In this document: in pieces, positions 11,459-64,000 of the stretch
Layout: every line of letters begins with the position of its first letter
How positions within the stretch are numbered: position 1 is the stretch's first letter
IMG/VR virus record: IMGVR_UViG_3300021387_000299
Location: 1 to 64,000 of that record
Reading direction: 5' to 3' (one strand)
Length of the DNA: 64,000 nt
Source: a virus
Taxonomy: Duplodnaviria > Caudoviricetes
Translations under genes and position numbers: made by a program
The notes under the pieces: generated by a model
What the model was told of the DNA's origin: nothing
The model's input: the letters and a program-made list of their open reading frames with translations, nothing else
Database searches by the model: none

Positions 11459-11626
11459 ATGACAACAGAAAAGAAAAAGTTTTTAGATCAAATTGGCGTT
11501 AGCTATTTATGATCTAAAATTTTAGAGAAATTTGCTTCATTAGAAAATCGTGTCGATGAAATTGAAACCGCTGAATATGTCATCTATGGTGGTTCCGCAT
11601 CTGATGTAATGAAGGAGGGCGAGTAA
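11459..11626 (+). CDS. small tail-associated protein (TGA=Trp at 11510)
   Basis: RBS aaggagg; FLDQIGVSYL*SKI matches the common LDxxGLxYLWxKI tail-fibre N-terminal motif; TAATG-coupled to next gene. Confidence 0.7.
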
Positions 11627-12144
11627 TGAAAAGAGTAATCGAAGCTACAATTCGCCTTCGTAGAGATAACGATTATAACTATGAAGCAATTAAAGACAAA
11701 TTTGTTCCAGCTAATGGTGAAGTAGTTCTAGTTGATACTGCGCGAGATGGTCTCCGCGCAAAAGTTGGCAATGGATATAATACATATGCCGAGCTTCAAT
11801 TTACAGATGCAGATCTTCGCAATGCTGTTCTCCAAGGTTATTATGAAAATGGTGTTTTTTATAGTGATCCTATTAAACAAACTCCAATGGCGAATATGGT
11901 TAATAAAATCTATATTGATATTCCGCGTAGAAAAATCTACTATTTCAATGGTACAGAATTTATTCCAGCAGAAGCCCATTTAACTACAGCAAGCGCAGAA
12001 ACAGCAGGCGTAATGAAATTATATAGTACCACAGGACAAAATACTGATGGAACAATGACACAAAAAAGCATCACTGATGAATTAAATCAAAGAATTAAAA
12101 CAGACATTGATGCTGAAAACGAATTATTAATTTTTAGTTTATAA
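11626..12144 (+). CDS. tail fibre-related protein (hyaluronidase/Mtd-like N-terminus)
   Basis: LRRD...FVPANGE...KVGNG..Y.EL; KLYSTTGQNTDGTMTQK. Confidence 0.75.
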   Translation: MKRVIEATIRLRRDNDYNYEAIKDKFVPANGEVVLVDTARDGLRAKVGNGYNTYAELQFTDADLRNAVLQGYYENGVFYSDPIKQTPMANMVNKIYIDIPRRKIYYFNGTEFIPAEAHLTTASAETAGVMKLYSTTGQNTDGTMTQKSITDELNQRIKTDIDAENELLIFSL

Positions 12145-12159
12145 GGAGGAAAATAAATT

Positions 12160-13458
12160 ATGGCTCAAACTTATACACATACCCCAGCTCTTTCTAAAAT
12201 TAAGTTAGGCGCAACTACTTATTATTTGAAAGATGCTGATGTTCGTGCTATTTTAGACACATTTGGTAATATCGTAACTGAAAATAAAGCCACAAAAATT
12301 GATGATGGTGCTACTGGAATTCCTAATGCTGATCAAGTTTATGATTTTGTCATTCAGCAAATTACTGAAGTTGGTAAGGCTCTTAATTTAATTGCAGCAA
12401 CAGACCATACTCAAGTTCTTGAACCAAGAGTTGGTGACTTCGTTGTTGAAGCAGATGGTTCTGAATGGGTTTATGATGGCAATAAAACCGATGGCAAAAA
12501 TGGATGGAGAGAAGTTGGTACTGAAACAGCTTATGTAAAGAAAAACTTTACTATTGCTGGCGTAGACATGCAGGATAATATTACAAAAGCTGAACTTCAA
12601 GAGGCTCTTGAATTACATTCTCTTGCATATATGGATACTGGTAGTGTTACTCTTACAACTCCAGATGGCGTTAATAGCTTCTCAACTGGTAAAGCTGGAG
12701 AATATAACGTTACTGCAAGCGAAGTTTCAGTTCCTGCAACATATAGCGCATTAGATGTTACACCTGCAGGTTCAGTTGAAATTACTGCCGGTACTGCTGC
12801 TGCTGCTTCTTATGATAAAACAACAGGTATTACAATGGCTGCGGCTGCCCCTTCTGATGGTCAGTCTGCTACATACACACCTGCTGGTGAAGTAACAGTT
12901 ACTAACGTTACAGTTACACCAAGCAATGTTTCTGTCGCTAAGGTTACTGACAATGGTACTGCTTATCAGTTATCAGAAGGTAGTGTTTCTCATGCTACTG
13001 ATACGACTTCTCAGTTCGCAATTGCTGGAATGTTGGCTTCTATTGACGAAACAGATAATGAAATGTTAGTTCTTGCCGATGCCACAAAAGCAGATGCAGT
13101 TACTGCTGTTGGCACAATCACATATACAGCGCCTACATTAACAGGTTCATTGCCTACATTTGGAACTGAATCAGTTGTTAGTGGAATTTCAAGTGCTAGT
13201 GCTACTGCTTCCTTTGCTGGAACAGGCGTTATGCTTAATGCTACACCTACATATACAGCTGCTGATGCAACAGTTACACAACCTACATTCACAGCTGCAT
13301 TTACAGGTACTTCAAAGAGTGTTACACCAGCTGTTGCAACATCTGTTAAGGCTGCTGGTACAGATGGAAAAGTTACAGTTGCTTCTGAAACAATTACACC
13401 TACATTACAGACATCTGAAAAAGACATCAATGTTACTTTTGAACCATCGCTTAATTAA
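12160..13458 (+). CDS. virion structural/tail protein
   Basis: T/A/S/V-rich with TPAG repeats; YYLKDADVR N-term; RBS aaggagg. Confidence 0.75.
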   Translation: MAQTYTHTPALSKIKLGATTYYLKDADVRAILDTFGNIVTENKATKIDDGATGIPNADQVYDFVIQQITEVGKALNLIAATDHTQVLEPRVGDFVVEADGSEWVYDGNKTDGKNGWREVGTETAYVKKNFTIAGVDMQDNITKAELQEALELHSLAYMDTGSVTLTTPDGVNSFSTGKAGEYNVTASEVSVPATYSALDVTPAGSVEITAGTAAAASYDKTTGITMAAAAPSDGQSATYTPAGEVTVTNVTVTPSNVSVAKVTDNGTAYQLSEGSVSHATDTTSQFAIAGMLASIDETDNEMLVLADATKADAVTAVGTITYTAPTLTGSLPTFGTESVVSGISSASATASFAGTGVMLNATPTYTAADATVTQPTFTAAFTGTSKSVTPAVATSVKAAGTDGKVTVASETITPTLQTSEKDINVTFEPSLN

Positions 13459-13543
13459 AAACCAAAATTTCTTGAAACGATAGAAATTTATAATTAAAAA
13501 ATAAATTATAAAACTCTTGAAAAGATAGAGGATATAATTTTTC

Positions 13544-13581
13544 CTGGGTAGGGGATATTATATCCTCTACCCAGTTTTTTT
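13544..13581 (+). terminator. intrinsic terminator
   Basis: ctgggtaggggata/tatcctctacccag + T7. Confidence 0.8.
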
Positions 13582-13593
13582 ATGGAGAACTAT

Positions 13594-13821
13594 ATGATTA
13601 AAGAACAAACTTTAATAAAAAAAGATACTTCTTATAATTGAAATAAAGCTAAAAACTTCATTCCAAAAGAGAATGAAGTATTAGTATATACTGATTTTAA
13701 TCCTAATAGAATTAAAATTGGTAATGGAAAAACTAAAGTAAATGATCTTCCATTTGTTGATAACAATGAATATAGTATTGAGGAAGATACTTTAGTTATT
13801 AATACAAAAGGAGAATTTTAA
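13594..13821 (+). CDS. hyaluronidase/Mtd N-terminal-like protein (TGA=Trp at 13639)
   Basis: DTSYN*NKAKNFIPKENE...KIGNGKTKVNDLPF; TGA at the conserved NW position. Confidence 0.8.
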
Positions 13822-13823
13822 TT

Positions 13824-14450
13824 ATGGCTGAAATTATGGCTGAAATTTCTAAAATTAAATTAAATGGAACTACATATAATCTGAAAGATAATGAGGCGAG
13901 AGAAGAAATAGATAATCTTTCTGAAGTTGCAGTTTCTGGTAATTATGATGATTTGATTAATAAGCCAATTATAAATATTTACATAATAGAAAACAATGGC
14001 GAATTAATTGCATGTCAAAAAGATGGCGAAACGCAATATACTTTTGAAGAAATTGTTGGATATTTAATTGATGGTTTTTTTATTTGTGCAAATTACAAAG
14101 AACAAACTTTTTTATATGACGGCGCTTGAGATACAGCTGGAAAAAGAATTGTTGATGGTATTGACTTGACACAGACCAATATGACTCCAACCGTATTAAG
14201 ATTTGCCCATTATCCTGTATATTATGCAGATTCTATTTCAGATAATTTTCAATTTTTAGTTTTTAATGATAACAATAGTATTACTTATGGAGTTCAACCT
14301 GGATTTTCAACAGTGGCTTTTTCTGGAAATTACAATGATTTATTAAATAGACCAACTATCCCTGATTACGGACTACAAGTTACAGATGACAATGATGGTA
14401 ATATTGTACTAGATGTTATTTCCATTGCTAGTACAGAAGGGAGTTTTTAA
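13824..14450 (+). CDS. tail-associated protein (TGA=Trp at 14127)
   Basis: Track ORFs 13824 and 14166 are in one frame; SGNYxDLxNxP repeats in both halves. Confidence 0.8.
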
Positions 14451-15799
14451 TGGCAAACAATAAACATTATATAGTTTCTGAAACTGAATTAACAAATATC
14501 GCCAATGCAATTAGATATAAAAATGGTGAAGCTTCTACATATACAATTGCACAAATGCCTAATGCAATTAAAACATTAGAATCTCAAAATGATACTTATG
14601 TAGATCAATCAATTCGATCTGCTTTTGCGCAAAAAGGCATATTTATTCCAGAAAATACTCTTTTATCTGAACTTCCATCAATTATTATTGATGATTGTAA
14701 TTGAGTGGTAGGAGATGGATGCAATTATTTTCATTACGAAGTTCCAGAACATGTTCTTCCAGTTGATACTGTTCATCATCTATGTACTTTCACAGGAACA
14801 ACTTCAATTGGCGCTAGTCTAATTTCTTATGATAAAAGTAAGCAACATACAACAAAAGAAACTATTTGAAGTTCAGATTATTATGATTTAGATGAAAAAT
14901 ATAGGGGAAAATTAGTATTCTTAAAAATGGATGGCACGCTTGAAGTTGGAATTTATGGAGATAATCATTATTCTTTTGCTGGATACACTGGCTCCGGATA
15001 TTCTGAACGTTGTGCGAATTCTGCTCAATTAGTTCGTGCAGAATTAGGAACTAATTGTACTGCTCATACAAACGCTTTTCAAGGAGCAACAAATCTTAAA
15101 GAAGTTTATTTTTCTAAAGATTGTAAATGAGGACCCATGAATCGTGCTTTTTATAACTGCCAATCTTTAAAAAAAATTTATATAAATAACCCAGAGATAT
15201 GGACTGGAATTGACCAATATCAATTTTACAATTGCACTAATTTAATTGATTTTACATTACCTTCATCGGTAACATGAATTGGCGCCTATGCTTTTTATAA
15301 TTGCAAGAGTTTAGTTGAAATTAATTTAAATGATAATATTAGTTCAATTGGAGATCATGCTTTTTATAATTGCACTTGCTTAAAAAATATTCATATTCCT
15401 AAAAGTTTAACAAAAATACCCTCTTATTTTTGTTTTAATTGTAGCAATCTTCCTGAAATTATTATACCAAACAACATTATAGAAATAGGAGATTCTGGTT
15501 TTTATTATTGCTCTAAAATTACACAATTAACAATTCCAGAAAGTGTTACCACAATAGGAAAGCGTGCTTTTACATTAATGTCCAAATGCCTTGAATATCA
15601 TTTCTTAAGTGCAACGCCTCCATCTTTAACTCTTTATACTGTTGGTTCTAACAGTTATACTCCTTTTGGCACACTTCCAACTGGAGCAAAAATTTATGTT
15701 CCTTATTCTTCCGATCATTCAATTTTAAATGCGTATAAAACCGCTGAAAATTGATCAACTCATGCCGATAATATTTATGAAGAGGAGGGTAATAAATAA
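14450..15799 (+). CDS. BspA-type leucine-rich repeat (LRR_5) protein, 449 aa, 5 in-frame TGA
   Basis: IGxxAFYNCxxL repeats; C-term AYKTAEN*STHADNI; TGA at 14702, 14867, 15128, 15275, 15752; TAATG couplings at both ends. Confidence 0.85.
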
Positions 15800-18063
15800 T
15801 GACAAGTTCAAAATTAAAAACAATAACATTTAATAATACTTTAACTAATCAAAGTGTAACATATCCACTACCAACAAAAACTAGCGACTTAACAAATGAT
15901 AGTGGTTATATTACTTCTTATACGGAAACCGACCCAACTGTTCCAGAATGGGCAAAACAAGCAACCAAACCAACTTATACAGCAAGTGAGGTAGGTGCTG
16001 CAAGTATATCTGATTTAAATAATTATGTTGTAAAAAGAAATTATGATGATGCCAACTCTAGTTATATAACTAATGATTCTGGACGTATTACTATCGAACA
16101 AAGCACTTCACGCTTACTGAATAATTCAAAAATTGATTTAAATGGGTCAACAGTAGCTTTAAAATCTTGGAATGGACCAGCAGTTGGTGCTGAAAAAAAT
16201 GCAAATGTTATTACATTAACTCCAACTCAAACTACTATTAAAAATATAATTACTCCAACGAATGATGGAGATGCGGCTAATAAAAAGTATGTAGATGATT
16301 CGGTTTCAGAAATAGAACCTCTCGTCGTTGATGTGAGCGAAGATCCTGATACTGGAGTTATAACATCTAGTAAGACTTATGAAGAGATAGATGCTGCCAT
16401 ATTAGCTGGAATCAATGTTGTTCTTAAAAACGAGTATAATAATATTTTTCCATATCAAGGACAAAGTTCTCTTTGAAGTGATAGAGCGCTTGCATATAAT
16501 TTCTATAGAATCGAATACATGGAGCAGCAGCTCAGCATTAATGGATATTTTATCGCTCCTGGGACAGCTAGCTGATCAAAAGGACGTATTTCTGAAAATA
16601 TAGTAATGACTGAAGCGTTTGCTACTAGACGACGTAGTGATGATAATAACATAGCATATACAATTTCTAATGAGCCAGATTATGACTTTGGTTTACTTGT
16701 ATCTTCTGGATCTACAATTATTTCTCAAATAACAGCCGCAGAGGATGGCGTAGATATTATTTCCGCACAAGGAAACATACGATTCTCTGGAGAACACATA
16801 GGAGCATCAAATACTGATCCTGCTTGATCTCCAACAGATAATAATGACTTCACTACAAAAAAATATGTTGATGACGCTGTATCTAGTATTGTTATTCCAA
16901 CAGTTCCAACAACAGTATCATCTTTCACCAACGATTCTGGCTATCAAAACTCAACACAAGTTCAATCAGCTATTAATACTGCTATTGGTAATATCAACTC
17001 ATTTGAGGTTGAAGTCGTATCAGCACTTCCAACCTCAAATATTAATGATCATACAATTTATTTTGTTCCACAAGCAGTTAATTCATCAACTCATGATGAA
17101 TATATGTATATAAATAATAATTGAGAATTAATTGGGAATACTTCTGTTGATTTAAGCGGATACTTACAAAAAACAGAAATTGCGGACTGGGCTAAAGCGA
17201 GCATTAAACCCAGCTATACTGCAACAGAAGTTGGGGCTATGAGCATTTCTCATGCCGCAAACGCAATTACAAGTGCCGATATTACGGCTTGGAATAATAA
17301 ATCTAATTTTAGTGGTTCGTATAATGACTTAACAAATAAACCGACAATTCCTACGGTTCCAACTAATGTAAGTTCATTCACTAATGATGCTGGTTATTTA
17401 ACCTCATTTACTGAAACCGATCCTACAGTCCCTGCATGGGCAAAAGCTGCGACTAAACCGACATATACAGCTGCCGAAGTAGGGGCGTTGCCAGATACAA
17501 CAGATTTAAGTAAATTTTTAAAAAATGAAGAAATCGTAACTGGAGGTTTATTTACAGGTGGAACAGAAGCTGTAACAATTGAAAAATCCGGCACTAATCC
17601 AGCATCGCTTTTACTTGGCGCAACGACAAATAAGAAAAACGGTTTTATTTTAGGAACTAATAGCGGCAGAATTGCTGGTTTTACTCAAAATAACTCTACT
17701 CTATTAGAAATAAGTAATTTTAATCAAGTTTCAATAGAGAATATTGTTACACCAACTACAGATACCATGGCTGCTAATAAGAAATATGTTGATGATGCTA
17801 TTGCTTCCGTTACACCAACAGAAACTGATCCTATCTTCTCTGCAAGTGTGGCCGCAGGCATTTCATCTACGGATATTTCAAATTGAAATGCAAAATCTAA
17901 TTTCTCTGGTTCTTATAATGATTTAACTAATAAACCAACTATTCCAGCAGCAACAACAGTAACAAATACTCTTGCTTCTGGAACACTTATTGCTACAATT
18001 AATGGCACAAATATCTACGCACCAACATATACTAATGGAGATAATCTTGCTTACGGAGGTTAA
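15799..18063 (+). CDS. tail fibre protein, 754 aa, 5 in-frame TGA
   Basis: Repeats TNDxGY, ETDPTVPxWAK, AANKKYVDD, SGSYNDLTNKPTIP; TGA at 16474, 16573, 16825, 17122, 17884. Confidence 0.85.
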
Positions 18064-18066
18064 TCT

Positions 18067-18969
18067 ATGGCACAGGTTTTGATTACTGATACAAAATTAG
18101 ATAATTTAGCACAAACAGTTAGTAATAAATCTGGCGTAGCATTACCATTAACAATTGATGAAATGGCAACTGCGGTTGCCGGCATTTCAACCGAAGGAAT
18201 TACACCTACAGGCACTATACCTATTACCCAAAATGGCACATATGATGTTACTAATTATGCATCTGCACAAGTCGCTTTACCCTTTAAGCATATATATTTT
18301 TCTAAAGATAATATAACCCCAGCAAATGGAGATATATATTTCAATATTATAGATGAGGTTATTCAATCTGATTCAACTACATCTATAGATGTAATTCCAT
18401 CTGGGTATTTAAGCGATTATCAATATTCTCAATTTAGTAGCCCATCTAATTTTTATACAGATGCATCATCAAATACATATGCAACTGTTCGTGCTACAGG
18501 TGGAAATAGTGCTGAAACATACATATATTTTACATTTGATACATCTGCTTTACCTCCTGTATTTTATGCAGCGTCTGTATCTGCTACAATTAAAATGCAT
18601 CAAAGAGCATATAGTAGCTCTTTTCAACAAGCATATTTTGTAATATGTCTAGATGAAAAAGAAATTGACGAAACAAGAGTAACTTTTAGATATAGTGATT
18701 CAGCAACTACAATAACTATTCCAACAACGAGTATCCCCGATTGAGATGGAAGCGAAAGACTTTCTTTAAAATTTTATGTTCAAAAAACCAGTAGTGATGG
18801 AACTACTTATCGTTCAATTGACTTATACGGTGCAAATTTAAAAATTAATTATTCTACCACTCCAAGTTATTTAACTTCTGTAATAACAGAAAAATATAAT
18901 GGAACAGACTGAATTCCGACTTCTTTTAATAATACTATCGCAATAAATAATAATTTCATAAGGAAATAG
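18067..18969 (+). CDS. tail/baseplate-associated protein, 2 in-frame TGA
   Basis: ITQNGTYDVTNYASA motif; TGA at 18742, 18910 (YNGTD*IP). Confidence 0.8.
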
Positions 18970-18983
18970 AAAGGAGAAAATAA

Positions 18984-19193
18984 ATGGCGCAAGTTTTAAT
19001 TACAGATACTAAACTCAATAGTTTAGCTAACGCTATTGCCGAAAAAGCCGGAATTGAAGCTCCTTTAACTATACAGCAAATGGAAGATGCAATTGAAGCT
19101 TTAAGTTGGGCAATATATTATACTGGTTCATCAGAACCAAACAACTCCCAAGGAAATAATGGAGATATTTATCTACAAACAGAATCTGAATAA
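18984..19193 (+). CDS. small tail protein, N-terminal paralogue of 18067
   Basis: MAQVLITDTKL shared; YTGSSEP..GNNGDIYLQT. Confidence 0.8.
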   Translation: MAQVLITDTKLNSLANAIAEKAGIEAPLTIQQMEDAIEALSWAIYYTGSSEPNNSQGNNGDIYLQTESE

Positions 19194-19207
19194 GGAGAAA
19201 TTAAGTT

Positions 19208-19858
19208 ATGGCAACTATTACTGAAACTTTTCATCCTGTTGGTATCGAAGTTCTTGATGCTAGTGGAAATTCAATAGAAGTAACTAATTCAGAACGATTT
19301 ATTGGGGAAACATCTGGTGCAACAACATCAAGTAATTATGGACAATATTATTTGGAACCTGGAAGTTCAGCAGAAACTTTTGGCTGAATACAATTTGATT
19401 GTAGCTCTATTCCAGCTAATGCCATTATTACTGAAGTAACGGGTAAATTTAAAATATATTCATCAGGAAGCGCAACTTACATTTCTCCTCGTCAATTACG
19501 TTTATATTATAATAATAGAACTGATACTAAAGGATTTTCTGTTAATCAAGTGTCAAGTTCAGCTGTAATGGATTTAGATTGCGGAACTAATTGAACCAGA
19601 GAAATGCTAGATGATTTAGAATTAAGAATATATTCAAAACGAACTTCTAGAAATGTTACATCTAATTATTATGTTCGTATTTATGGCGTTGATATTACTA
19701 TTACTTATGAAATACCCAATAATTCTGGATTATTTGTAAAACAAAATGGAATTTGAACTCCAATTTCAAAAATTTATCTTAAAACAAATGGCTCTTGAGT
19801 TGAACAAGAACCTACATACCTATCTGATAATAATATAAAATATTTAAAGCGCGGCTAA
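19208..19858 (+). CDS. tail-associated protein, 216 aa, 4 in-frame TGA (absent from ORF track)
   Basis: RBS aaggag; FDCSSIPANAII; KQNGI*TPISKIYLKTNGS*VEQ; TGA at 19385, 19592, 19754, 19796. Confidence 0.85.
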
Positions 19859-19916: not shown

Positions 19917-20366
19917 ATGCAAGCAATTATTAATAATGTATCTTATCACGTTTTAGGTCATTACGCAGAACAAGGCGGCATGGCTCGTCTAATTCTTCAA
20001 GGTAAGGATATTTCTTTCGATGAATTACAGACCAATATTGAAGAAGCGGAAGAAATTCTGATTACAAATGAGACAGATCAAATCGTAGCTACATATGTTG
20101 GTTATACTAAGATTCGTCAACTTTCTATAACTTTAACAGAAGACAATCAATTTCAAATTGAGCTTGCGCTAGAGGCAGAAAATGTTATTGCATCTGTAGA
20201 AAACGCTCAAAAGAAAATCATGAATAATACTCAAGCAATTGAAAATCTTTCTAGCTCAATTGAAGAAATTAGAGAACAATTGGCTTCTATTCAAGAATCT
20301 ATCAAAACAATTCTTAATTCAAACTCTTCTGAAAATGAATTAATTGTCGAAGAACCTGCTGAATAA
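19917..20366 (+). CDS. hypothetical coiled-coil protein
   Basis: RBS aaggag. Confidence 0.75.
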   Translation: MQAIINNVSYHVLGHYAEQGGMARLILQGKDISFDELQTNIEEAEEILITNETDQIVATYVGYTKIRQLSITLTEDNQFQIELALEAENVIASVENAQKKIMNNTQAIENLSSSIEEIREQLASIQESIKTILNSNSSENELIVEEPAE

Positions 20367-20368
20367 TT

Positions 20369-20399
20369 AAAAATCCCCGTGCTTTACGGGGATTTTTTT
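20369..20399 (+). terminator. intrinsic terminator
   Basis: aaaaatccccgt/acggggattttt. Confidence 0.85.
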
Positions 20400-20455
20400 G
20401 ATTTTTATAAAAATATATTATAAAATTAATATGTAAAAAGGAAAGGAGCATAAAA

Positions 20456-20779
20456 ATGAAAAATGAAAATGTTTTAACTCCAGAACAGCAAAAACAAATT
20501 TGGGACATTGCTGGAGAAGCTTGCTCCAAAACGCCAAAACTTAAATTTGAAACTTGTTATACAACAACTTTATTATATTATTTAACTCAATTTTGTGAAT
20601 ATAAAATAAGCAATATTCCACCTTATTACAGAAATACAGTGGAATTATTATATAAAAATCCTAAAAGTTCTTATTTGCATTACTGGCACAATATTATGTA
20701 CTCTAACAACGTATATGCAAAAGCAATTAAAAAAGCAGAAATTCAAGTGATGGGAGATGATCCAAGATGTCCATGGTAA
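20456..20779 (+). CDS. hypothetical protein
   Basis: RBS aaggag. Confidence 0.7.
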   Translation: MKNENVLTPEQQKQIWDIAGEACSKTPKLKFETCYTTTLLYYLTQFCEYKISNIPPYYRNTVELLYKNPKSSYLHYWHNIMYSNNVYAKAIKKAEIQVMGDDPRCPW

Positions 20780-21558
20780 TTGATAGATTAAATACTCACT
20801 ACAATTTTGCTAAAGAGAAATTTAATGAAGATAACATCGTCGGATTATTTCTTGTAGGTAGCCAAAATTATGGTACCGACGTTGAAACATCTGATGTTGA
20901 TACAAAGTTAATTATCACTCCAAGTTTATCTGATATTTATGATGGAGCTTCATGCAAAAATAAAACTTATAAAGTTCCAGATAGTAAAGATCAGATGACA
21001 GTAAAAGATGTTAGATCTTTTTTAATGGAATTAAAAAAGCAAAATATTAATATCGTAGAAACTTTATTTACAAACTACTATATTATCAATCCAACATACA
21101 AAAATGCTTGGCAGCCATTAGTAGATAATAAAGAAACTATTGCTCATTATAATTCGATTGCTGCGGTAAGAACAGCAAAAGGCGTTGCTTTTGATTATTA
21201 TAGCAGACTTTATAATGAGGAAGGAAAAGTAAATCCAAAGCAGGCCGCCAATTTAGTTAGATTAGAATACTTTTTACGACAATATATCAACGGAAAATCA
21301 TATGCAGATTGCATTCATCCAAAAGATGAAGCATTAGAATATATTAAACAAATCCGTGCTGGACAGTTAGGTAATTCTTCAATGTCAATCATTGCAGAAT
21401 CTAATATGAATGCGATCAAAGCCTTAGCTGACGCATATGTTCAGAATCCTAATTTAAATGTAAATAATCCAGAAATGGATAGATTACTTGCTGACGTTTG
21501 TAAAGAAGTTATTGATACAGCTTTCTTTACAGAATATGCTAGAAATGGAGAAATTTAA
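20767..21558 (+). CDS. Pol-beta superfamily nucleotidyltransferase
   Basis: LVGSQNYG...SDVD motif. Confidence 0.8.
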   Translation: MSMVIDRLNTHYNFAKEKFNEDNIVGLFLVGSQNYGTDVETSDVDTKLIITPSLSDIYDGASCKNKTYKVPDSKDQMTVKDVRSFLMELKKQNINIVETLFTNYYIINPTYKNAWQPLVDNKETIAHYNSIAAVRTAKGVAFDYYSRLYNEEGKVNPKQAANLVRLEYFLRQYINGKSYADCIHPKDEALEYIKQIRAGQLGNSSMSIIAESNMNAIKALADAYVQNPNLNVNNPEMDRLLADVCKEVIDTAFFTEYARNGEI

Positions 21559-22328: not shown

Positions 22329-22373
22329 AAAAATAATAATATAATTATTATATAAAGAAAGGGATATAAAAAA

Positions 22374-54048: not shown

Positions 54049-54049
54049 T

Positions 54050-54541: not shown

Positions 54542-54550
54542 GGAGGATTT

Positions 54551-54793
54551 ATGTCTAAAACATTGAGTTGTGAAATAAATCCTTTCTGAAAACAACAAAC
54601 TTTAACAGATAATTATACAGGAAAAGAGTATCTGGTAACAACAAAAGAGATACCAGATACTCTTTATTTTTTGTTTTCAAAAGGAGACGTTGAAAAAGTT
54701 CAACTAACAGGAGCCTATTTTGATTGCTTTGATATAATATATAAGTTTGAAAATAGATTCCCAAAATGTAAATTAGAATTCGAGGTATTATAA
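54551..54793 (+). CDS. hypothetical protein (TGA at 54587)
   Basis: RBS aggagg; 80 aa when TGA is read through; resembles 55733 ORF. Confidence 0.6.
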
Positions 54794-54794
54794 T

Positions 54795-54959
54795 ATGAAT
54801 TTAATAATAGTATCACAAATAATAAAAATAATACTCGCAGCGATCGCGGGAACTTTAAGTTTATTAAAATTCAATGAAAAAGATGAGCGCATTTGCGTTT
54901 ATTGGCTTTTAGTAACTTTCTACTGGATCATTAACTTTTTGCAAGGACTTCCATTATAA
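54795..54959 (+). CDS. small membrane protein
   Basis: RBS gaggt; two hydrophobic segments. Confidence 0.5.
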   Translation: MNLIIVSQIIKIILAAIAGTLSLLKFNEKDERICVYWLLVTFYWIINFLQGLPL

Positions 54960-54999
54960 AGTCCTTGCATTTTTTTTATTTTTATGATATAATAATTAT

Positions 55000-55233
55000 A
55001 TGAATGAAAAAGATAAACAAATAGAACGCTTTTTATTAAGTTTAGTAGCAGTTCATACTAGAGATGTTTTAGATTTAGATAATAACATTAAAGTGTCAAT
55101 TGAAGATTCTGAACTTAATAAAGATAGTGTAAAGAGAAGAGTAATTATAGATTTTCCTAGCATTGAATCTTGGGGTCAAGCAACAAATATGTGGGCATCA
55201 TGGAAAAATGCTTATAAGCATCGTAAGAGGTAG
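55000..55233 (+). CDS. hypothetical protein
   Basis: Apparently leaderless after promoter. Confidence 0.6.
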   Translation: MNEKDKQIERFLLSLVAVHTRDVLDLDNNIKVSIEDSELNKDSVKRRVIIDFPSIESWGQATNMWASWKNAYKHRKR

Positions 55234-55235
55234 CT

Positions 55236-55742
55236 ATGCTAAAAATAAAAGATTTAAAAACATTGATGAAACTAAGAGCCAACAATAAGAATGGAGAAAC
55301 GGCTCTTGTAGAAGAAACAAAAACCTTATATAAGTGGGATGGAGAGAACTGGAATATTTATAAGCCAGAAGGTGGCATTAAGGCTAATCTATATGAATTA
55401 AATCAAGGAGCAATGACCGCAGCTCCAGCCATGGAGACAGAAGCTATCGAAACCGCAAAAAAGAAAATTGCTGATTTCGTTGCTGTATGTAATTCAAAAT
55501 ATTTTATGTTATTAAATAAAGAACGCAGTTATTATACAGTGTTTAATATTGGATATGATACTGGTACAGATTTCAATTATCACAAAATCGAAGATGAAGT
55601 AATTGAATGCTTAGAAAGTCAAGGTATTATTAAAGATATTGATAATGTTGAAAATGGTATTGAATGCTGGATTACAATAGATGATAATTCATATGTTTAT
55701 TACTTGTTTGATTATCAAGGAGGTGTTATAAGATGCCAATAA
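55236..55742 (+). CDS. hypothetical protein
   Basis: RBS gaggt. Confidence 0.75.
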   Translation: MLKIKDLKTLMKLRANNKNGETALVEETKTLYKWDGENWNIYKPEGGIKANLYELNQGAMTAAPAMETEAIETAKKKIADFVAVCNSKYFMLLNKERSYYTVFNIGYDTGTDFNYHKIEDEVIECLESQGIIKDIDNVENGIECWITIDDNSYVYYLFDYQGGVIRCQ

Positions 55743-55990
55743 TTACTTGTGGATTAAATATTTTTGATTATGATCAAACCGTTTATCTAATGAAAGATGA
55801 TAAAACGATGGAGCCTTTGGGTAAATCAACTTTGGAAAATTTAGATCATTTTATTGTTACTTGTTGCGGTAAATATGATATAAATAAAGTAAGATTGGTT
55901 GGATTGCAGCAATACACCCAGCCGTTAAAAAATAGAATTGAAAAAGAAAGTGTTGCTCGATATAGCAAAAAGATTGAGGTAGAAATTTAA
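55733..55990 (+). CDS. hypothetical protein
   Basis: RBS aggaggt. Confidence 0.7.
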   Translation: MPIITCGLNIFDYDQTVYLMKDDKTMEPLGKSTLENLDHFIVTCCGKYDINKVRLVGLQQYTQPLKNRIEKESVARYSKKIEVEI

Positions 55991-56244
55991 TGAGTAAGTT
56001 TTTAGTTAGTACAGTGGAAACATATCGTGTTGATTCCGATGAGGAAGCAAAAAATTTAATTGAAGAAGCAAAAAAATCTTCTATGTTCGAATTAGGCAAA
56101 TATAGTTCTGAATATAAGACAAGAAGCGCAAAAGGTGAAATTGTTGATGAATATTATAAAGTTGTTCTCACAAAGACATTTAATGATATTAAAGAGCCTG
56201 ATCGACATATTAAAGTTGATTATGATGTAGATTATAATATGTAA
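55990..56244 (+). CDS. hypothetical protein
   Basis: TAATG coupling. Confidence 0.75.
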   Translation: MSKFLVSTVETYRVDSDEEAKNLIEEAKKSSMFELGKYSSEYKTRSAKGEIVDEYYKVVLTKTFNDIKEPDRHIKVDYDVDYNM

Positions 56245-56254
56245 GGAGTTTTAA

Positions 56255-56800
56255 ATGAGTAAATTTGAAGTAGTAAGTAAATATATTGGAGAAAACGGTA
56301 ATACAGCTATTCATCTTCCAGTTCGTGCAACTGAACATAGTGCAGGATATGATTTTGCAGCTGCGCAGGATGTTATCATTCCATCAATGAGAGAAATTAT
56401 GAATACATTTGAAGACTATGTTGCAAAAAAGATTCCTTATTCATATGAAGATATTAAGGCTGTAACAAAAGCAACAGGATTTAGACCTACTTTAATTCCT
56501 ACTGGAATTAAGTGTCAACTTGATGTTGGTAAGTATCTTGAAATTTCTGTTAGAAGTTCTACTCCTCTTAATGGTTGGGTCATTCTTGCTAATGGAGTAG
56601 GCATTATTGATGGAGATTATTACAACAATCCAGATAATGAAGGCGAAATTTTCTTCCAGGTTATTAACCTCTCTCCAGTAGATATTGTGATTAACGCTGG
56701 AGATAAAATTGGTCAAGGTATTATTAAATCATATGACAAAGTTGAAGGAGACGATGTCACAACCAAGAGAATTGGAGGCTTAGGCTCTACTAATGCCTAA
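56255..56800 (+). CDS. dut: dUTPase
   Basis: SAGYD, RSS, GIIDGDY, QG, RIGGLGST. Confidence 0.93.
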   Translation: MSKFEVVSKYIGENGNTAIHLPVRATEHSAGYDFAAAQDVIIPSMREIMNTFEDYVAKKIPYSYEDIKAVTKATGFRPTLIPTGIKCQLDVGKYLEISVRSSTPLNGWVILANGVGIIDGDYYNNPDNEGEIFFQVINLSPVDIVINAGDKIGQGIIKSYDKVEGDDVTTKRIGGLGSTNA

Positions 56801-57311
56801 TATCTTGGCTCTTGACCAAGCTTCACGCGTCTCTGGATGATCGGTCTTTATAGATGGAGAATTAAAAGACTGAGGACATTTAACAACAAATCAAGAGGAC
56901 GTAGGTGAACGTCTTCTTGATATTCATAATTTTATCATTAAAAAAGTCCAAGAGTGAAATATAGATACAATTGCTTTTGAAGATATACAATTGCAGTCGT
57001 CAGTTGGGAACAACGTAAAAACATTCAAAGTATTAGCAAATGTTTACGGTGTAGTTCAAATGACTGCTGTACAGCTTAATAAAAATTACAAGGTGATACC
57101 ATCTTCAACGTGAAAATCTAAATTACAAATTAAAGGACGAACAAGACCTGAGCAAAAACGCAATGCCCAACAATATGTGCTCCAAAAGTATGGAGTTAAA
57201 GCGACGCAGGATGAATGCGATGCCATATGCATCGGTACTTGCGCAAGCCTGGTTCAGGGATCGGATGAGCGAATCGCCGCAAATGAAAATGGATTTGATT
57301 GGTCAGAATAA
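56793..57311 (+). CDS. ruvC: RuvC-like Holliday junction resolvase, 4 in-frame TGA (absent from ORF track)
   Basis: ILALDQAS..SG*, FED, PSST*KS, DECDAICIG; TGA at 56838, 56871, 56955, 57111. Confidence 0.88.
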
Positions 57312-57368
57312 TTAAAGGTGCTATGCACCTTTTTTATTTTATAAGAAATAATAAAGGGGGATTTTAAC

Positions 57369-57959
57369 ATGACAATTACCGCAGATGCAGTTTTAACATA
57401 CATCCTTGTTGCTGTTGGTGGCTTTTTAGTAAAGGTAATACTTGATAAAATTAAACAATCAGCAGAAGATAAAACAGATAAGGCTCGTAGATTTGAAGAA
57501 CAGTCATGGAAAACAGAAATTACAAAAATTGTTAGAGAAGAAAACTTATCATTAAAAAAAGAATTAAGTAATAGAATTGAAGAAATTCAAAAAGAAAATA
57601 GAAAAAATTATGATTATTGGCAAAAAATGTATTGGGATGCCGTTGATCGTTTAGAAAAAGTTCAGAAAAAATTTGAAAATCTTGAAAAACAAGATATTAT
57701 TTTTTACAGAAATTTGTTAATTGATACTTGTAAAGAATATATAGCAAAGGGTGAACTCACAGAATATCAATTCGATAGATTAACAGAGTGGTATAAGATT
57801 TATAAAGAACTTGGTGGAAACCATCAAGGTGATTTATATTATAAGAAAGCAGTTGCTTTACCAATTATTCCAGATAAGCATTCTGAAGAAGATCAAAAAA
57901 TGCATAGTATCTTTGACTACGAAGATTTAGTTGAATCAGAAAACAAAAATAAGGGATAA
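57369..57959 (+). CDS. membrane-anchored holin-like phage protein
   Basis: N-term TM, coiled coil, YKELGGN motif. Confidence 0.6.
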   Translation: MTITADAVLTYILVAVGGFLVKVILDKIKQSAEDKTDKARRFEEQSWKTEITKIVREENLSLKKELSNRIEEIQKENRKNYDYWQKMYWDAVDRLEKVQKKFENLEKQDIIFYRNLLIDTCKEYIAKGELTEYQFDRLTEWYKIYKELGGNHQGDLYYKKAVALPIIPDKHSEEDQKMHSIFDYEDLVESENKNKG

Positions 57960-57990
57960 CCTATAATTTAGGTTATCCCTTATTTTTTTT
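57945..57990. terminator. bidirectional terminator at strand convergence
   Basis: aaaaataagggataaccta/taggttatcccttattttt. Confidence 0.85.
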
Positions 57991-58390
57991 ATGCTTGTCT
58001 TGTAAACTTAATTACATTTACCTGCTCTTGGATTAATTGAGAAATATAGAAGTCAAGATCTGTATAAACTTCAGTTAAGACCTTCTGCATTTCCTCAGTT
58101 AATAAAGCTTTAATTGCATCAAATGTCTTATGATAAGCAATATCATGTTCTTCTGGGCCAAATCTACCCTGTTCTTTTAATTCATCAACGTAGGTTTGAT
58201 TTGTAGCAATAACGCAAGTTTCAACAATTCCCATTAACATATCTGAATACTTGTTAAATAATTCATTTTGTGAATTATCTTGCATTTCTTTAACCTTCTT
58301 CCGCATAAAAGCAATACCATAAGTGCAAAGAATACCAATTAAAGGTAATAAACAAGTAAAGAAAATTTCTTGTAATAGCGCAGCTGTCAT
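57989..58390 (-). CDS. LL-H-like holin
   Basis: Single N-term TM, V.ATNQTYVD.LK..G.F; RBS aaggag. Confidence 0.65.
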   Translation of the reverse strand: MTAALLQEIFFTCLLPLIGILCTYGIAFMRKKVKEMQDNSQNELFNKYSDMLMGIVETCVIATNQTYVDELKEQGRFGPEEHDIAYHKTFDAIKALLTEEMQKVLTEVYTDLDFYISQLIQEQVNVIKFTRQA

Positions 58391-58411: not shown

Positions 58412-58506
58412 TGGCGGGGGATGTAGGACTCGAACCCACACCCGCGGCTATGGACACCGCTACCCTGGTTTTGAAGACCAGTGTGCTACCATTACACTAA
58501 TCCCCC
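58412..58506 (-). tRNA. opal suppressor tRNA(UCA), Trp-like body with a 25-nt extra arm
   Basis: Reverse complement: gggggat-ta-gtgt-aatggta-gcac-a-ctggt-ctTCAaa-accag-[25 nt]-gtggg-ttcgagt-cctac-atccccc-g-cca. Confidence 0.93.
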
Positions 58507-59219: not shown

Positions 59220-59531
59220 TTAATCCTCTTCTATGCTGTTATTTTGTTGAAATTGTCTTCAAGAGGTTAACTGACCATATAATTCAAACATATAGTTAGA
59301 GCCTCTTGATAAAATTATTGCAGTAGCAATTATACCAATAATGGGCCATTGTTCAACAAAACCTAACATTACAAAGAAATTAAGACTCATATCATAGCAA
59401 AGTAAGCCACTTAAAATCAAAGCAACAATAATTTGTCATTGAATAGAACCATTTTTATAAATTTGTTGTCCATATGAAATTAAGCCTTCAATAAGAATAG
59501 CTACAGCAATGAATGGAAAAAAACCGCTCAT
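59220..59531 (-). CDS. holin-like 3-TM protein, 2 in-frame TGA (absent from ORF track)
   Basis: MSGFFPFIAVAILIEG...IQ*QII...LSRGSNYMFEL; directly follows endolysin; RBS aagggg. Confidence 0.75.
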
Positions 59532-59561
59532 AATATTTAACCCCTTTATTCTTATTTACAT

Positions 59562-60293
59562 TTATTTTCAATTGCCAATAAATCTACCATTTTTATCAAA
59601 CATGACAGGGACAGTATGCTTGCCAATAAATAAGGCACCGTTCTTTCCGAAGAAATACCAGTTCCCATCAAGTTTGCACCAACGAGATGAGGCCATAACC
59701 CCATGATCAAGAACAAATCTCTTAACGCCATCGTCATTAATCCATGCATGTTTCTGCATATAACCTTCAGCGTCAGTATGATATGTCTTGCCATCAACTG
59801 TAACCCATTGATTTCTTACCCAAGAATCACCGAGTTTGCATCTCTGTCCTTTACTATCCTTCACCCATACAGCTTTCTGATCTTGCAATGCGTTAAATCT
59901 GAAGGCTCCAAGAATATCTAACTTCAATTTAACTGTGCAGTATCCGCCATTGCCGCCTTGGTTCTGCCCGAAGATGTATGCATATCCATCCTCTTCGGCG
60001 TATCTTACAAGCATACCGACATGAGAAGAAGGACATGAGCTACCCATTGCCCAGAAGAGCCAATCGCCCGGTTCTAGCTTTTTCTTGTCTGTAATAAATT
60101 TTGCATACGCTGAATATTCAATTCTGTTATACCAGTATCCATCTGCCCAACCAGTTTTTGTAGGTAATACTGGAACTTTAATATACCAACAGAAACGTTT
60201 GAATGCATCAACGCACTGTGCCCCATAGACACCATCATAGTCATCGACTTTCCCATTATATTGGTTAATAAAATCTTGCACTATTTTATTCAT
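59562..60293 (-). CDS. endolysin: CHAP domain plus choline/cell-wall-binding repeats
   Basis: DGVYGAQCVD, HVG, GQNQ; W-rich repeats; ends GN-TGA-K-TAA. Confidence 0.9.
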
Positions 60294-60336
60294 AACATTT
60301 CCCTCCTTTTATTAAAAACAAAGGAGGAAAATAAAA

Positions 60337-60894
60337 TTAACAACACTCCTTTGTTTTTTTACAATATTCTTTATATTTTTTATCTTGATCTGATATTATT
60401 GAATTAATATCAAAATCTGTTGTTTTTCTTTTTACATAAAGTGATTCAGCTCCAGCCAATTCTTCGTCTACATCACAAATCAAGCATCCAAGGAATTGTG
60501 CATCAGCAACTTCGCCCATATTCATTAATTCAATATACATTTTTTGATATAAGGTTTTTGTGCTACGCTCTCAATCTATTCATTTTTCTAAACCTGTTTT
60601 TACCGCATTTCTTTTTGTTGTAGCATCAACATCTTTGCGTTCATATGCATACCAAGAGTTAGGAATTACTTTTGGATCATCTACCGATTTAGTTTTTATT
60701 AATTTATTATGATGTCGTAAATAATATCTATTAATTTCCATATAATTTTGACTTTCGGATAAATAATGATATCTATGACATTCTGCATAACCTTTTAAAT
60801 TTAAAAAACAGTAATAATTAGACATTTGATCGTGAATCATCAAACCTTTTATCATATGTGCACTTAATTCAGAATAAATTTCTTCAAGTGTCAT
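60337..60894 (-). CDS. ferritin-like helical protein, 2 in-frame TGA (joins two track ORFs)
   Basis: GLEK*ID*ERSTKTLYQKMY bridges ORFs 60580..60894 and 60337..60540 in frame. Confidence 0.75.
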
Positions 60895-60895
60895 A

Positions 60896-61306
60896 TTAGA
60901 TTCTTACTGCGGTAACATCAATTGTGCTATAAGTAGCTTCAATTCCCGCATTTCTTAAATCAATTGTTGTTGTTGTAGAACAAGGGCAATTTATATTATT
61001 ATTATCTGGAACTTGAACTAAAGTTGTAAAACTGAATGGAATTTGTGAAGTGGCATCTGCGGCAGTAATTAAAGAAACTGCTTGTGGCTGAATTACACCG
61101 TTCTTCTCTAATTGAACAATAATTTCTCCAGCCGCACTTCCAATTACACTACCAGAAACTGAAACTTCATAAACTCCACATTTATTAAATTGAATTGTTG
61201 AAGTACCCAATAATTGAGTGCTTGTACCCTTTAATAAAGCAACGGTTGTTAATGGAATAATTCCATTAGCGGCAACATTAACATTTTTAGAATATACTTC
61301 TAACAT
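60896..61306 (-). CDS. BclA-C/C1q-like beta-sandwich protein
   Basis: GVYEVSVS...L.KNG..P.A. Confidence 0.55.
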   Translation of the reverse strand: MLEVYSKNVNVAANGIIPLTTVALLKGTSTQLLGTSTIQFNKCGVYEVSVSGSVIGSAAGEIIVQLEKNGVIQPQAVSLITAADATSQIPFSFTTLVQVPDNNNINCPCSTTTTIDLRNAGIEATYSTIDVTAVRI

Positions 61307-61379
61307 TTAATCATTCCTCCTAAACTTTTCCTTTTGATTAAAAATAAAAAGGGCAACTAAATAGTTACCCTTTTATTTA

Positions 61380-62045
61380 CTAAAGTGTTGCTCCACCACA
61401 AGCGCAGAACGGATTTGTTCCTGCGTAGTAAGTGCTTGCACTTGGGTAGCGAACTACACCAGCAACTGCCTGTTGAAGCTGTAACTGGTTAATTTGACTC
61501 TGCATATCTGCCATACGATTACCTGTAATAGCATCAAGAATCTTCTGAGTTTGTGCTGTTGTATTTTCGTTAATTGCGGCAGTATTAATTGCATTTGCAT
61601 AATTTACGCCATCAATTGCGCGAAGTGTCTGGCAGCAACATTCATTTTCTTTTGCTAATAAATTAGCCTGACCAACAGCTAAACCACCAATATCTCTGGC
61701 AAGTTCGCTGTATTTATCACTTAAAGCATTAAGTGTGTCGTGGAATGTCTGATTAGTCGCGGCTACTGCTTGCGCAGTTCCAGCGTTGACGGCTGCGAGA
61801 GTCTCTCTCTGATTTGCCATCATATTCTGAGTATCAAATCCACGATCTACTTGTGATTGTGTCGCCAGATTTTCATAACCGATTGCATTAGCGAAGCCGT
61901 TATTACCCCAGCCGCTAAAGCCACCGCCAGCGAGAATCAATAAAGCAAAAATCCACATCATGGAGTTGCCGCCCCACATATCACCATAACCATTACGATC
62001 GCTCAATAAAGCAACATCACTAGCTGATAAACTTCCATTTTCCAT
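61380..62045 (-). CDS. conserved phage protein with CCC motif
   Basis: GGG-rich TM N-term, ECCCQTLRAIDGVNY. Confidence 0.75.
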   Translation of the reverse strand: MENGSLSASDVALLSDRNGYGDMWGGNSMMWIFALLILAGGGFSGWGNNGFANAIGYENLATQSQVDRGFDTQNMMANQRETLAAVNAGTAQAVAATNQTFHDTLNALSDKYSELARDIGGLAVGQANLLAKENECCCQTLRAIDGVNYANAINTAAINENTTAQTQKILDAITGNRMADMQSQINQLQLQQAVAGVVRYPSASTYYAGTNPFCACGGATL

Positions 62046-62101
62046 TTTAAATTCCTCCTAATTAGTAAATTAATAGTCAAAGTTTTACCAATTAGGATTC
62101 T

Positions 62102-62341
62102 TTATTTTAACATATCCAAAATTGAATTTGGATCTATTCCTTTTTGTTGCGCTAAAGCATAAAAAGCTGTTTTTGGATTACCCCCATATTGATTAATCAA
62201 TCCAGTAACTTGAGGGTTTTGCGCTAATAAATTATTTAATAAAGCTTGAGGATTAGGCGAGTTTTTTAACATTGAAATCATATTATTGTTTGTTGATGAC
62301 TTTGATTGGTTTAGCATCTGAAGCATCGGATTTCCTTGCAT
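62102..62341 (-). CDS. N/Q/M-rich small protein
   Basis: GGNPKTAFYALAQQKGIDP. Confidence 0.75.
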   Translation of the reverse strand: MQGNPMLQMLNQSKSSTNNNMISMLKNSPNPQALLNNLLAQNPQVTGLINQYGGNPKTAFYALAQQKGIDPNSILDMLK

Positions 62342-62660
62342 TGAACGCCTCCTCTAATTTAGTTATTCTTTCCTCTAAAGCAGAATAATCTACACTCGCC
62401 GTGTTTGTAGTTTGAGTTTCAATAGGAGTAATTGTATATCCAGTTACTGTTGGATATGATGCTCCATCTGTTGTTTTTAATCAAACAACTGGTGCTGTCT
62501 CATCTAAAAGTAGTATACTACTATTGGGCGCCATTTGATAAGCATTTGCACCATTTCGCCCATTCACTCTGATAACTTCTTGTCGTTGTAAATAATTTTG
62601 TTGGCCCATAACTCCATAATTTGGGTATGTTGGAGCAGGGTATCCTGAATAATTCATCAT
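62283..62660 (-). CDS. conserved phage protein (TGA at 62481; absent from ORF track)
   Basis: RBS aaggag; VNGRNGANAYQMAPNSSILLLD...V*LKTTDGA. Confidence 0.8.
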
Positions 62661-62768
62661 AAATAAACTCCTTCCATTTTAGTAAAACTTTTCCTATTTT
62701 AGTACCTTTCCATCGGTACATTACTAATAAAAAACGTGATAATAAAATTATCACGTTTTGTCCATTTT

Positions 62769-63320
62769 TTATTTAGCTCTTTTTCAGCTATTTCCATCCT
62801 TTACATAAATTGCAGATACTGTTTTTCAGACTCCATTAACATTAACATATGCGGTATTAATTGTTTTTCAGCTTCCATTAATATTAACATGACTTGAATA
62901 AGTTATTGTAGAAGGTGCTGTCTTAAAGTTTACATCAATGGTCATTTTTCCCATTTTTTCTCCATTTATGTAAATTCAATCTGCTGAATTAGTGCTGTCT
63001 GCTCCGGTATTTGCTTCTCCATGCACTGTATATGTAGTGTTAGCACTTAATCCTGTTAAATTAATAGATCCTAACGGAAAATCATAGCTATCTCCTCCAT
63101 ATACTGTACCTTGGCAAGCAGTTGTGCCAGAGTTACTTGGAGATCCTGTGCTTCTTTTAATTAATCATTTTACATTATTTGCATTAATGCTAGCAAAAAT
63201 ACCAGGAGCTGTTATTCTTAAATATACTGTTGCAGTAGCTGATGATTGAGTAATATTAGAAAAATCAACAACAACAGAAAAAACTTGTAAGCCATCACTT
63301 GTTGATCATGTACTTGCCAT
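62769..63320 (-). CDS. tail-associated protein, 6 in-frame TGA (absent from ORF track)
   Basis: LTGLSANTTY (FN3-like); C-term NINGS*K/NVNGV*K/DGNS*K repeats. Confidence 0.8.
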
Positions 63321-63335
63321 ATAATATCTCCTATA

Positions 63336-64000
63336 TTAATCAGTATATTTTAATCAAACATCACCATTTACTCCGCCAGAAGGATTCGAAGTACTTGCAA
63401 AAATATTTCTTAAAGATCCTAATTTTTGATTATTACCTGGATTTAATAATGGAATACCAGCAGAACTAATAATTTGTACTGCACTGGTGCCGTCTGTAAA
63501 ATTAACATTTCGAATCTTTGTATAAGAATTTGTTGTAGATTTATTGTATACACTATAATCAGTATAGGTAGCACCATAACTACTAAAAGCATTTTCTATT
63601 TCACTAAAAAGTCTATTATTACTATCATTAGTTACTAATAATTTATAGGTTTCAGTTTCTGATGGATCTGTAGAACTTAATGCAAAAGAGCTTTTTGTTA
63701 TTAAACCACCAGGAACGGTAATTTTCCCAGTGGACAAATTATAGGTTGCTCTATTTGCAGTTGTTTTTGGAATCTGCCCATAGAGATCATTATAACTAGT
63801 CTCTCCTGTTGGTGCGGTAGGACTAGTACTCCCAGTACTACCACCAATTAAAGGTAATTCTGCATTTGTTGCATACGCCTTGTAGGTTCTCATTAAAGTG
63901 TTGGTATTGTCATTATGATCAGCATTAGTTAAAATTCAATAAGTTCCATTATAAACAAAAACACTGATTGAATCTTTATGTAATTCGTTAGCATGTGTTA
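63336..64000 (-). CDS. tail fibre protein, partial (continues past window), with TGA read-through
   Basis: VFVYNGTY*IL...GGVNGDV*LKY. Confidence 0.75.

Follow-up and report, generated by a model that had tools for sequence, protein, structure and literature searches.

The IMG/VR virus record IMGVR_UViG_3300021387_000299 is a contig of 177,819 bp (34% GC; completeness estimated at 95%), of which bases 1-64000, a stretch of 64,000 nucleotides, form the window analysed here. Judged by its genes, it is a large (~178 kb) siphophage of the animal gut related to SPbeta and Enterococcus phage EF1. Sequence comparisons firmly support the reading of its TGA codons as tryptophan (Trp, W), and the partition of these codons by gene class is supported just as firmly. 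On the same comparisons, the genome is dual in a strong sense, with TGA stopping some early genes and encoding Trp in late genes. It is very likely that TGA receives two readings in one infection, a phage-encoded suppressor tRNA(UCA) switching an early standard code to a late code in which TGA is Trp. An earlier note, made from the window alone, had proposed such a recoding as a translational lock on late genes in a standard-code host.

TGA behaves as a sense codon

Greedy open reading frame (ORF) coverage of the whole genome rises from 0.75 under the standard code (code 11) to 0.91 when TGA is read as sense (code 4), the comparison of coding density that the earlier note had suggested as a check. 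The gain is largest between 60 and 130 kb, where coverage goes from 0.5-0.8 to 0.95-0.99 and the region becomes a single minus-strand block. Broken frames fuse into continuous genes, mean ORF length increases from 162 to 248 aa, and a 2800-aa tape measure protein and a 2405-aa protein are restored. As controls, reading TAG as sense hardly alters the coverage, and reading TAA as sense inflates it to a similar extent everywhere, which is how an artefact would behave. Borges et al. (bioRxiv 10.1101/2021.08.26.457843; published 2022) recognize recoding, in contigs of 100 kb or more, by a coding density raised by more than 5%, together with longer genes and fewer changes of strand; the rise seen here exceeds their coding-density threshold for code 4. 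Standard annotation leaves ~70 kb of the genome in pieces.

Within positions 11459-64000, credible genes hold ~42 in-frame TGAs, in agreement with the ~40 claimed before; this count omits four probable start-site artefacts and the terminal TGAs of an HNH endonuclease gene. The N-terminal TGAs of the ORFs at 41663-42856 and 45680-46018 lie upstream of a conserved start and were left uncounted. The individual sites quoted in the earlier note are all present. The tail-fibre repeat pair is exact, reading ...ITAW(TGG)NNKSNFSGSYNDLTNKPTIP at ~17290 and ...ISN[TGA]NAKSNFSGSYNDLTNKPTIP with its TGA at 17884, and the motifs NNN*ELIG, NVNGV*K, SG*S, SST*KS and GDV*LKY (asterisk, TGA) are found as quoted.

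TGA columns align to tryptophan

The assignment of TGA to Trp rests mainly on relatives that use the standard code. Alignment with 14 clade members from IMG/VR, all fully coding under code 11, gave 20 real TGA columns, of which 17 hold W in nearly all members; the other three hold K or R and are variable. Three further TGA columns were dropped, being within a spurious antisense ORF. That ORF, at 120717-121535 on the plus strand, has five TGAs aligned to G, C and S and runs over two minus-strand genes. Cultured phages agree: all three TGAs in the N-terminal domain of a 787-aa virion protein (67464-69827) fall at invariant W of three cultured Vibrio Schizotequatrovirus phages, and the TGA of the TerL motif ESK[TGA]SG is W in four cultured standard-code phages. 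In Enterococcus and Rhodococcus phages with the standard code, the counterparts of the four TGAs of the RuvC-like gene are Y/Y, Y/Y, E/M and W/L. The earlier claim that TGA encodes Trp thus holds against independent standard-code homologues.

The composition of the genome points the same way. Opposite TGA codons of the phage, two sister genomes, G001 (161 kb) and G002 (176 kb), carry TGA 94 times, TGG 49 times and TAT 13 times, and the TGG codons of the phage show the same spectrum. When TGA is counted as Trp, Trp-equivalents amount to 1.33 per 100 aa in the replication and late blocks alike. The tail-fibre repeat, too, has TGG in one copy where the other has TGA. Database homologues of the Amidase_2 gene (41-85% identity) were rejected as proof of W, because all five contigs examined need TGA=W themselves and the argument is circular; searches of the amidase and RuvC against PDB sequences returned chance matches only.

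UGA-to-UGG RNA editing, or else pseudogenes or assembly defects, could in principle produce such interrupted frames, but the chance of this is negligible. Between 14558 and 20317, TGA is unchanged at at least 15 sites in RNA-library contigs from the source sample and a second study, contigs which can derive from DNA and serve here solely as evidence that no TGA-to-TGG change is present. Over the same interval the DNA run shows 0 differences, and TGA positions are conserved across independent assemblies.

TGA usage is partitioned by gene class

The blocks of the genome differ sharply in how they encode Trp. The late block contains 191 TGA versus 118 TGG and the replication block 17 TGA versus 143 TGG (Fisher p = 1.6e-28), while the fibre block holds 18 TGA versus 7 TGG. 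The genes concerned are as follows.

13582..19858, plus strand: fibre/receptor-binding block, seven code-4 ORFs, six with in-frame TGA
13824-14450, plus strand: fibre-block ORF, 1 TGA
14450-15799, plus strand: BspA-type LRR protein, 5 TGA
15799-18063, plus strand: repeat fibre, 5 TGA
18067-18969, plus strand: fibre-block ORF, 2 TGA
19208-19858, plus strand: fibre-block ORF, 4 TGA
19917..57959, plus strand: replication and nucleotide-metabolism block (GyrB, GyrA, LigA, DnaB-like helicase, DHH/RecJ-like, SF1 helicase, DnaE, NrdD)
22942-23967, plus strand: sigma factor, within the replication block
26132..26677, plus strand: Amidase_2 endolysin-like gene, 5 in-frame TGAs, inside the replication block
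35075..36055, plus strand: protein with an N-terminal membrane (TM) helix, a coiled coil and a GIY-YIG homing-endonuclease-like C-terminus, TGA at codon 3
47265-51170, plus strand: DnaE, 1301-aa ORF with blastn matches to annotated phage polymerase genes, 20 TGG and 0 TGA
56793..57311, plus strand: RuvC-like resolvase, 4 in-frame TGAs
58.5-131.6 kb, minus strand: late block with portal, TerL, the 2800-aa tape measure and virion proteins
59220..64000, minus strand: distal end of the late block within the window, continuing to 131.6 kb
59220-59531, minus strand: late-block gene, 2 TGA
59562-60293, minus strand: endolysin, 241 aa, 11 TGG, TGA-free, ending TGA-x-TAA
60337-60894, minus strand: late-block gene, 2 TGA
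62283-62660, minus strand: late-block gene, 1 TGA
62769-63320, minus strand: late-block gene, 6 TGA
63336-65459, minus strand: late-block gene, 8 TGA, 2 of these inside the window

Recoding therefore reaches well past the window in which it was first noticed, to 131.6 kb. Of the more than 100 Trp codons in the core replication enzymes none is TGA, and GyrB, GyrA, LigA, the DnaB-like helicase, the DHH/RecJ-like protein, the SF1 helicase, NrdD and DnaE all lack TGA and end in TAA or TAG. The earlier description of such genes as translatable in either code stands for these eight, but does not extend to every TGA-poor gene, since some of those end on TGA and are not code-neutral. For other codon pairs ending in A or G, the bias towards A is the same in the two blocks (0.60-0.85), a level that the TGA share of Trp codons approaches in late genes (0.62); this share is 0.72 for the fibre genes. 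In late genes TGA is thus close to an ordinary Trp codon, and replication genes have been purged of it.

Nearly all TGAs of the replication block lie in the Amidase_2 gene (5), the RuvC-like gene (4), the GIY-YIG/TM protein (1), the tail of the HNH gene and probable start-site artefacts. These TGA-rich exceptions are the same genes in G001 and G002, so that the pattern is gene-specific and conserved, and the partition claimed in the earlier note recurs in both sister genomes. Indeed, the RuvC orthologues also carry four TGAs in each sister genome, amidase orthologues in recoded relatives swap TGA and TGG at the same columns, and the codon-3 TGA of 35075..36055 is kept as TGA in G002, its orthologues having 2-5 TGAs. 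As a side observation, no gene other than 35075-36055 in the central part of the replication block has a conserved TGA.

A suppressor tRNA in a TGA-free transcription unit

The phage encodes a tRNA suited to reading UGA, located between an Hsp20-like ORF and the holin gene.

58412..58506, minus strand: opal suppressor tRNA(UCA), 95 nt, 62 bits with the Rfam tRNA model
59193-59165, minus strand: sigma-70-like promoter TTGACT-17-TATAAT, upstream of the tRNA unit
58920-59141, minus strand: 73-aa ORF of the tRNA unit, TGA-free
58534-58905, minus strand: Hsp20-like ORF of the tRNA unit, TGA-free
57989..58390, minus strand: holin (phrog_13712), TGA-free, directly downstream of the suppressor tRNA
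57945-57987: bidirectional terminator, after the holin
175-8256: cluster of 22 tRNAs, including tRNA-Trp(CCA)
4485..4560, plus strand: ordinary tRNA-Trp(CCA), anticodon arm ACGGU-CUCCAAA-ACCGU

The unit is short and TGA-free from its promoter through the 73-aa ORF, the Hsp20-like ORF, the tRNA and the holin to its terminator. The tRNA(UCA) has 7/5 acceptor/T stems, a 4-bp D stem, G73, an encoded CCA end and an anticodon arm of Trp type (CUGGU-CUUCAAA-ACCAG). Since G73 and the anticodon arm agree, it would derive from tRNA-Trp. It is the sole dedicated switch component found in the genome.

Some features of this tRNA would suit a reading of TGA as serine, selenocysteine (Sec), cysteine or glycine instead: ARAGORN labels it tRNA-SeC, and it is 95 nt long, with a class-II-like long extra arm and G73. 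However, bacterial tRNA-Sec has 8/5 stems and a 6-bp D stem, the anticodon arm is of Trp type, and the extra arm is a copy of a CCA anticodon hairpin rather than a Ser-type arm. With W at 17 of the 20 alignment columns, and none favouring S, C or G once the spurious ORF is removed, such a reading is only remotely probable.

Variable arm and intron-split orthologues of the tRNA(UCA)

The variable arm of the tRNA(UCA), 22-26 nt long, folds as GCGGU-GUCCAUA-GCCGC, a 5-bp stem closing the loop GUCCAUA, and resembles the anticodon hairpin of tRNA-Trp(CCA). A search of IMG/VR by the anticodon arm recovered 12 distinct long tRNA(UCA) sequences. In 11 of them a stem of 5-8 bp closes a loop N-U-C-C-A-(A/U)-A, which in three is exactly the Trp loop CUCCAAA; the CCA-bearing arms contain 10 different stem sequences, every one of which pairs. 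Such a loop occurs in none of 47 other class-II tRNAs examined. Three further long UCA tRNAs resemble true tRNA-Sec. Taken together, the sequences suggest that the CCA-bearing arm is probably a handle for the tryptophanyl-tRNA synthetase (TrpRS) of the host.

Default ARAGORN runs did not find a suppressor tRNA in G001 or G002, nor did tRNA BLAST against 30 relatives find an orthologue. The BLAST negative is misleading, because the orthologues are intron-split: both sister genomes have a syntenic tRNA(UCA) interrupted in the anticodon loop by homologous introns of 201 and 178 nt, respectively.

G001, C1:101637-101911: intron-split tRNA(UCA)
G002, C1:96747-97015: intron-split tRNA(UCA)

The G001 intron matches the full Rfam model RF00028 with E = 1.9e-7, its 34.9 bits being below the gathering score of 50; this match came from a narrow Rfam scan, and the intron of G002 escaped a scan covering 7 kb of that genome. 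In G001, a splice at U34|C35 together with the terminal G fits the classical U|...G rule. The G002 junction is ambiguous, and the classical rule would give it a UAA anticodon.

Tentatively, and with somewhat less than even confidence, we suggest that an unusual tRNA underlies the switch, one in which a Trp body is combined with a second, CCA-bearing anticodon hairpin that would let the anticodon-reading TrpRS of the host charge it despite its UCA anticodon; its gene would be split by a self-splicing group I intron in the sister phages, and it would be the sole phage-encoded component. If the decoy arm is functional, a host synthetase would be made to accept a reassigned tRNA without a phage-encoded enzyme, a point relevant to code evolution and to orthogonal tRNA design. 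The literature searched, coverage of which was incomplete, contained no description of intron-split phage suppressor tRNAs or of a variable arm bearing CCA.

TGA as a stop in early genes, and the code of the host

Small genes with strong TTGACA-17-TATAAT promoters make up the early region, which spans 131.7-178 kb together with 0-13 kb. Of the 90 strong sigma-70-like sites in the genome, 60 lie at 130-160 kb and four between 60 and 130 kb, and none lies within the fibre block at 13582..19858. Between 130 and 160 kb there is one promoter per small gene, often beside a GC-rich hairpin.

Several early genes led by a ribosome-binding site terminate on TGA. One of them, 163318-164067, shares its terminal TGA with the following start codon (ATGA), and its two orthologues have their TAA stop in exactly this column; likewise, the TGA stop of 133297-133797 is TAA in the G001 orthologue. 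Near-terminal TGAs of late genes behave differently: conserved sequence continues beyond them and they align to TGG, for example PED[TGA]MRNIHKD versus PEDWMRNIHKD. Two further genes carry TGA at a tandem end, and that of the HNH_3 gene probably serves as a stop.

22374..22952, plus strand: HNH_3 endonuclease, ends with tandem TGA TGA
8523-8750: gene of the TGA-poor class, ends TGA TAA

A rival reading is that the host itself uses code 4, with UGA as Trp, and that the phage shares this code and makes no switch. The apparent lack of a suppressor tRNA in the sister genomes by default search agrees with such a host, as do the bins of some relatives, which are assigned to Bacilli or Erysipelotrichaceae. 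Yet TGA both stops genes and encodes Trp in this genome, a duality that a code-4 host would hardly explain. The early TGA stops stand where orthologues have TAA, the core replication enzymes avoid TGA despite the A-ending bias elsewhere, and the phage encodes its own tRNA(UCA), copies of which are present in the sister genomes, hidden by introns. The clade also includes standard-code members, and a TAG-recoded relative, G005 (a 402-kb IMG/VR record), carries a full-length release factor 2 gene (RF2, prfB; 445 bits) at C1 ~22.8-23.9 kb on the minus strand. A code-4 host is accordingly very improbable, although less so than another amino acid at TGA. We infer a standard-code host, as the earlier note did; the support is indirect and consists of the early TGA stops at orthologue TAA, the TGA-purged replication genes and the phage's own suppressor tRNA. 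The prfB gene of G005 has no frameshift site, and its neighbouring genes match no family.

A switch or passive tolerance

These observations are consistent with the following course of infection. Early genes, written in the host's standard code and in some cases ending on TGA, would be expressed from host-type sigma-70 promoters, and the replication block avoids TGA altogether. As the tRNA-Trp-derived tRNA(UCA) accumulates from the TGA-free unit that it shares with the holin, charged by host TrpRS probably through the CCA-bearing arm, UGA would come to be read as tryptophan. Full-length virion, fibre, terminase, portal and tape measure proteins, RuvC and one amidase would then be made. We infer this temporal order, and likewise a role for the partition as a translational gate, beyond its being merely tolerated.

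Several points weigh against a switch of this kind. The promoter of the tRNA unit is of early type, which could permit read-through at TGA stops of early genes, and the predicted read-through tails are mostly only 0-28 codons long (84 in the worst case). Domain searches of the ~95% complete genome for release factor 1 (RF1) and TrpRS found none. Contigs of clade members are spread over nine bins of metagenome-assembled genomes (MAGs) with incongruent taxa, from which no host was drawn; the bin names include Treponema, Clostridia, Bacteroidales, Lachnospiraceae, Erysipelotrichaceae, Acutalibacteraceae, Gastranaerophilales and Bacilli, and the placement of these phage contigs in MAGs is probably mis-binning. 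Finally, the holin and the endolysin at 59562-60293 are TGA-free, unlike the bias towards lysis genes reported for other clades, and lysis is thus not simply locked. The amidase at 26132-26677, with its five TGAs, is a second one beside the TGA-free holin and endolysin at 57989-60293.

The absence of recoding from the holin and one endolysin would also suit passive tolerance, in which AT pressure turns TGG into TGA everywhere and the change survives only in genes translated once the suppressor tRNA is abundant, with no regulatory role. In line with this, the Lys, Glu, Gln and Leu pairs have an A-ending share of 0.77-0.94, to which the TGA share in late genes and the fibre block comes near, as would be seen with a nearly neutral synonymous codon, and the clade moves among codes 11, 4 and 15 over short distances, which suggests easy drift. 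On the other hand, the amidase, RuvC and GIY-YIG/TM genes are TGA-rich in all three genomes, a constancy that gene-specific timing and a gate fit equally. Tolerance and a lock share one molecular mechanism, which sequence alone cannot separate; we regard tolerance as rather unlikely, though a far stronger contender than any other alternative.

Relation to known recoded phages

The recoding pattern is already published for phages of this kind, as the earlier note stated, and this phage adds a well-resolved example. Borges et al. described TGA-recoded 'Agate' phages of animal guts, for which they proposed standard code early and an alternative code late; in these phages TGA stands at W in TerL and is rich in structural genes, not in neighbouring replication genes (10.1101/2021.08.26.457843). 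Judged by that published description rather than by named Agate genomes, the present phage very probably belongs to the same lineage. It is a large Firmicutes-type gut phage with TGA at W in TerL, TGA-rich structural and TGA-poor replication genes, a suppressor tRNA(UCA), close relatives in code 11, 4 or 15 and RF2 in a TAG-recoded relative. It departs from the description in that its holin and one endolysin are TGA-free and its early genes stop on TGA. Borges et al. found suppressor tRNAs in only 35% of code-4 genomes, whereas two seemingly tRNA-less members of the present clade hide theirs behind a group I-like intron; intron-hidden suppressors may therefore partly explain the rate of about one third. 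The decoy arm of the tRNA and the intron in the sister genomes are the more unusual elements of this case.

phAss-1, of the proposed Phassvirus (PMC10607447), has a 136-kb genome in which TAG is recoded to Gln, and is listed together with the NCBI 'Caudoviricetes code 15 clade'. It resembles the present phage in its TerL (43.6% identical), RuvC, SPbeta/EF1-like gene content and gut origin, and in both phages late genes are recoded and suppressor tRNAs are encoded with no dedicated synthetase; the two differ in the codon, TGA to Trp here as against TAG to Gln. Mycoplasma and Spiroplasma likewise read UGA as Trp through a tRNA-Trp(UCA), but do so genome-wide and with RF2 lost, whereas in the phage the recoding is limited to gene classes and TGA still ends some genes.

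TerL, RuvC and DnaE are closest to those of Enterococcus phages EF1/H1/VRE9, Geobacillus virus E3, Brevibacillus phage Sundance, whose terminase is YonF-type like that of SPbeta, and phAss-1. The standard-code relatives (EF1/H1/VRE9, E3, Sundance and SPbeta) are 33-48% identical in TerL and 36% in RuvC, have similar DnaE segments, comparable genome size and module order, and carry W (TGG) at the TGA sites of the phage. Of 66 TerL-relative loci, seven use code 4, 42 use code 15 and 17 use code 11; the loci with TerL identities of at least 84% are code 4, and most of those with 67-78% use code 15 or code 11. The DNA and RNA-library runs containing the phage are labelled as animal gut metagenome. 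A single genome holds TGA-terminated early genes, TGA-free replication genes and TGA-rich late genes, and the same clade offers standard-code, TGA-recoded and TAG-recoded members as controls.

Two minor features lie at the left end of the window. Within the tRNA cluster, tRNA-Leu(CAA) at 4405-4479 is only 75 nt long and has no long variable arm of the kind expected in bacterial tRNA-Leu; short Leu(CAA) genes are likewise present in G001 and G002. Adjoining the cluster, a TGA-free gene at 9813-11366 encodes a protein of 517 aa that combines the domains DUF2828 and DUF7788.

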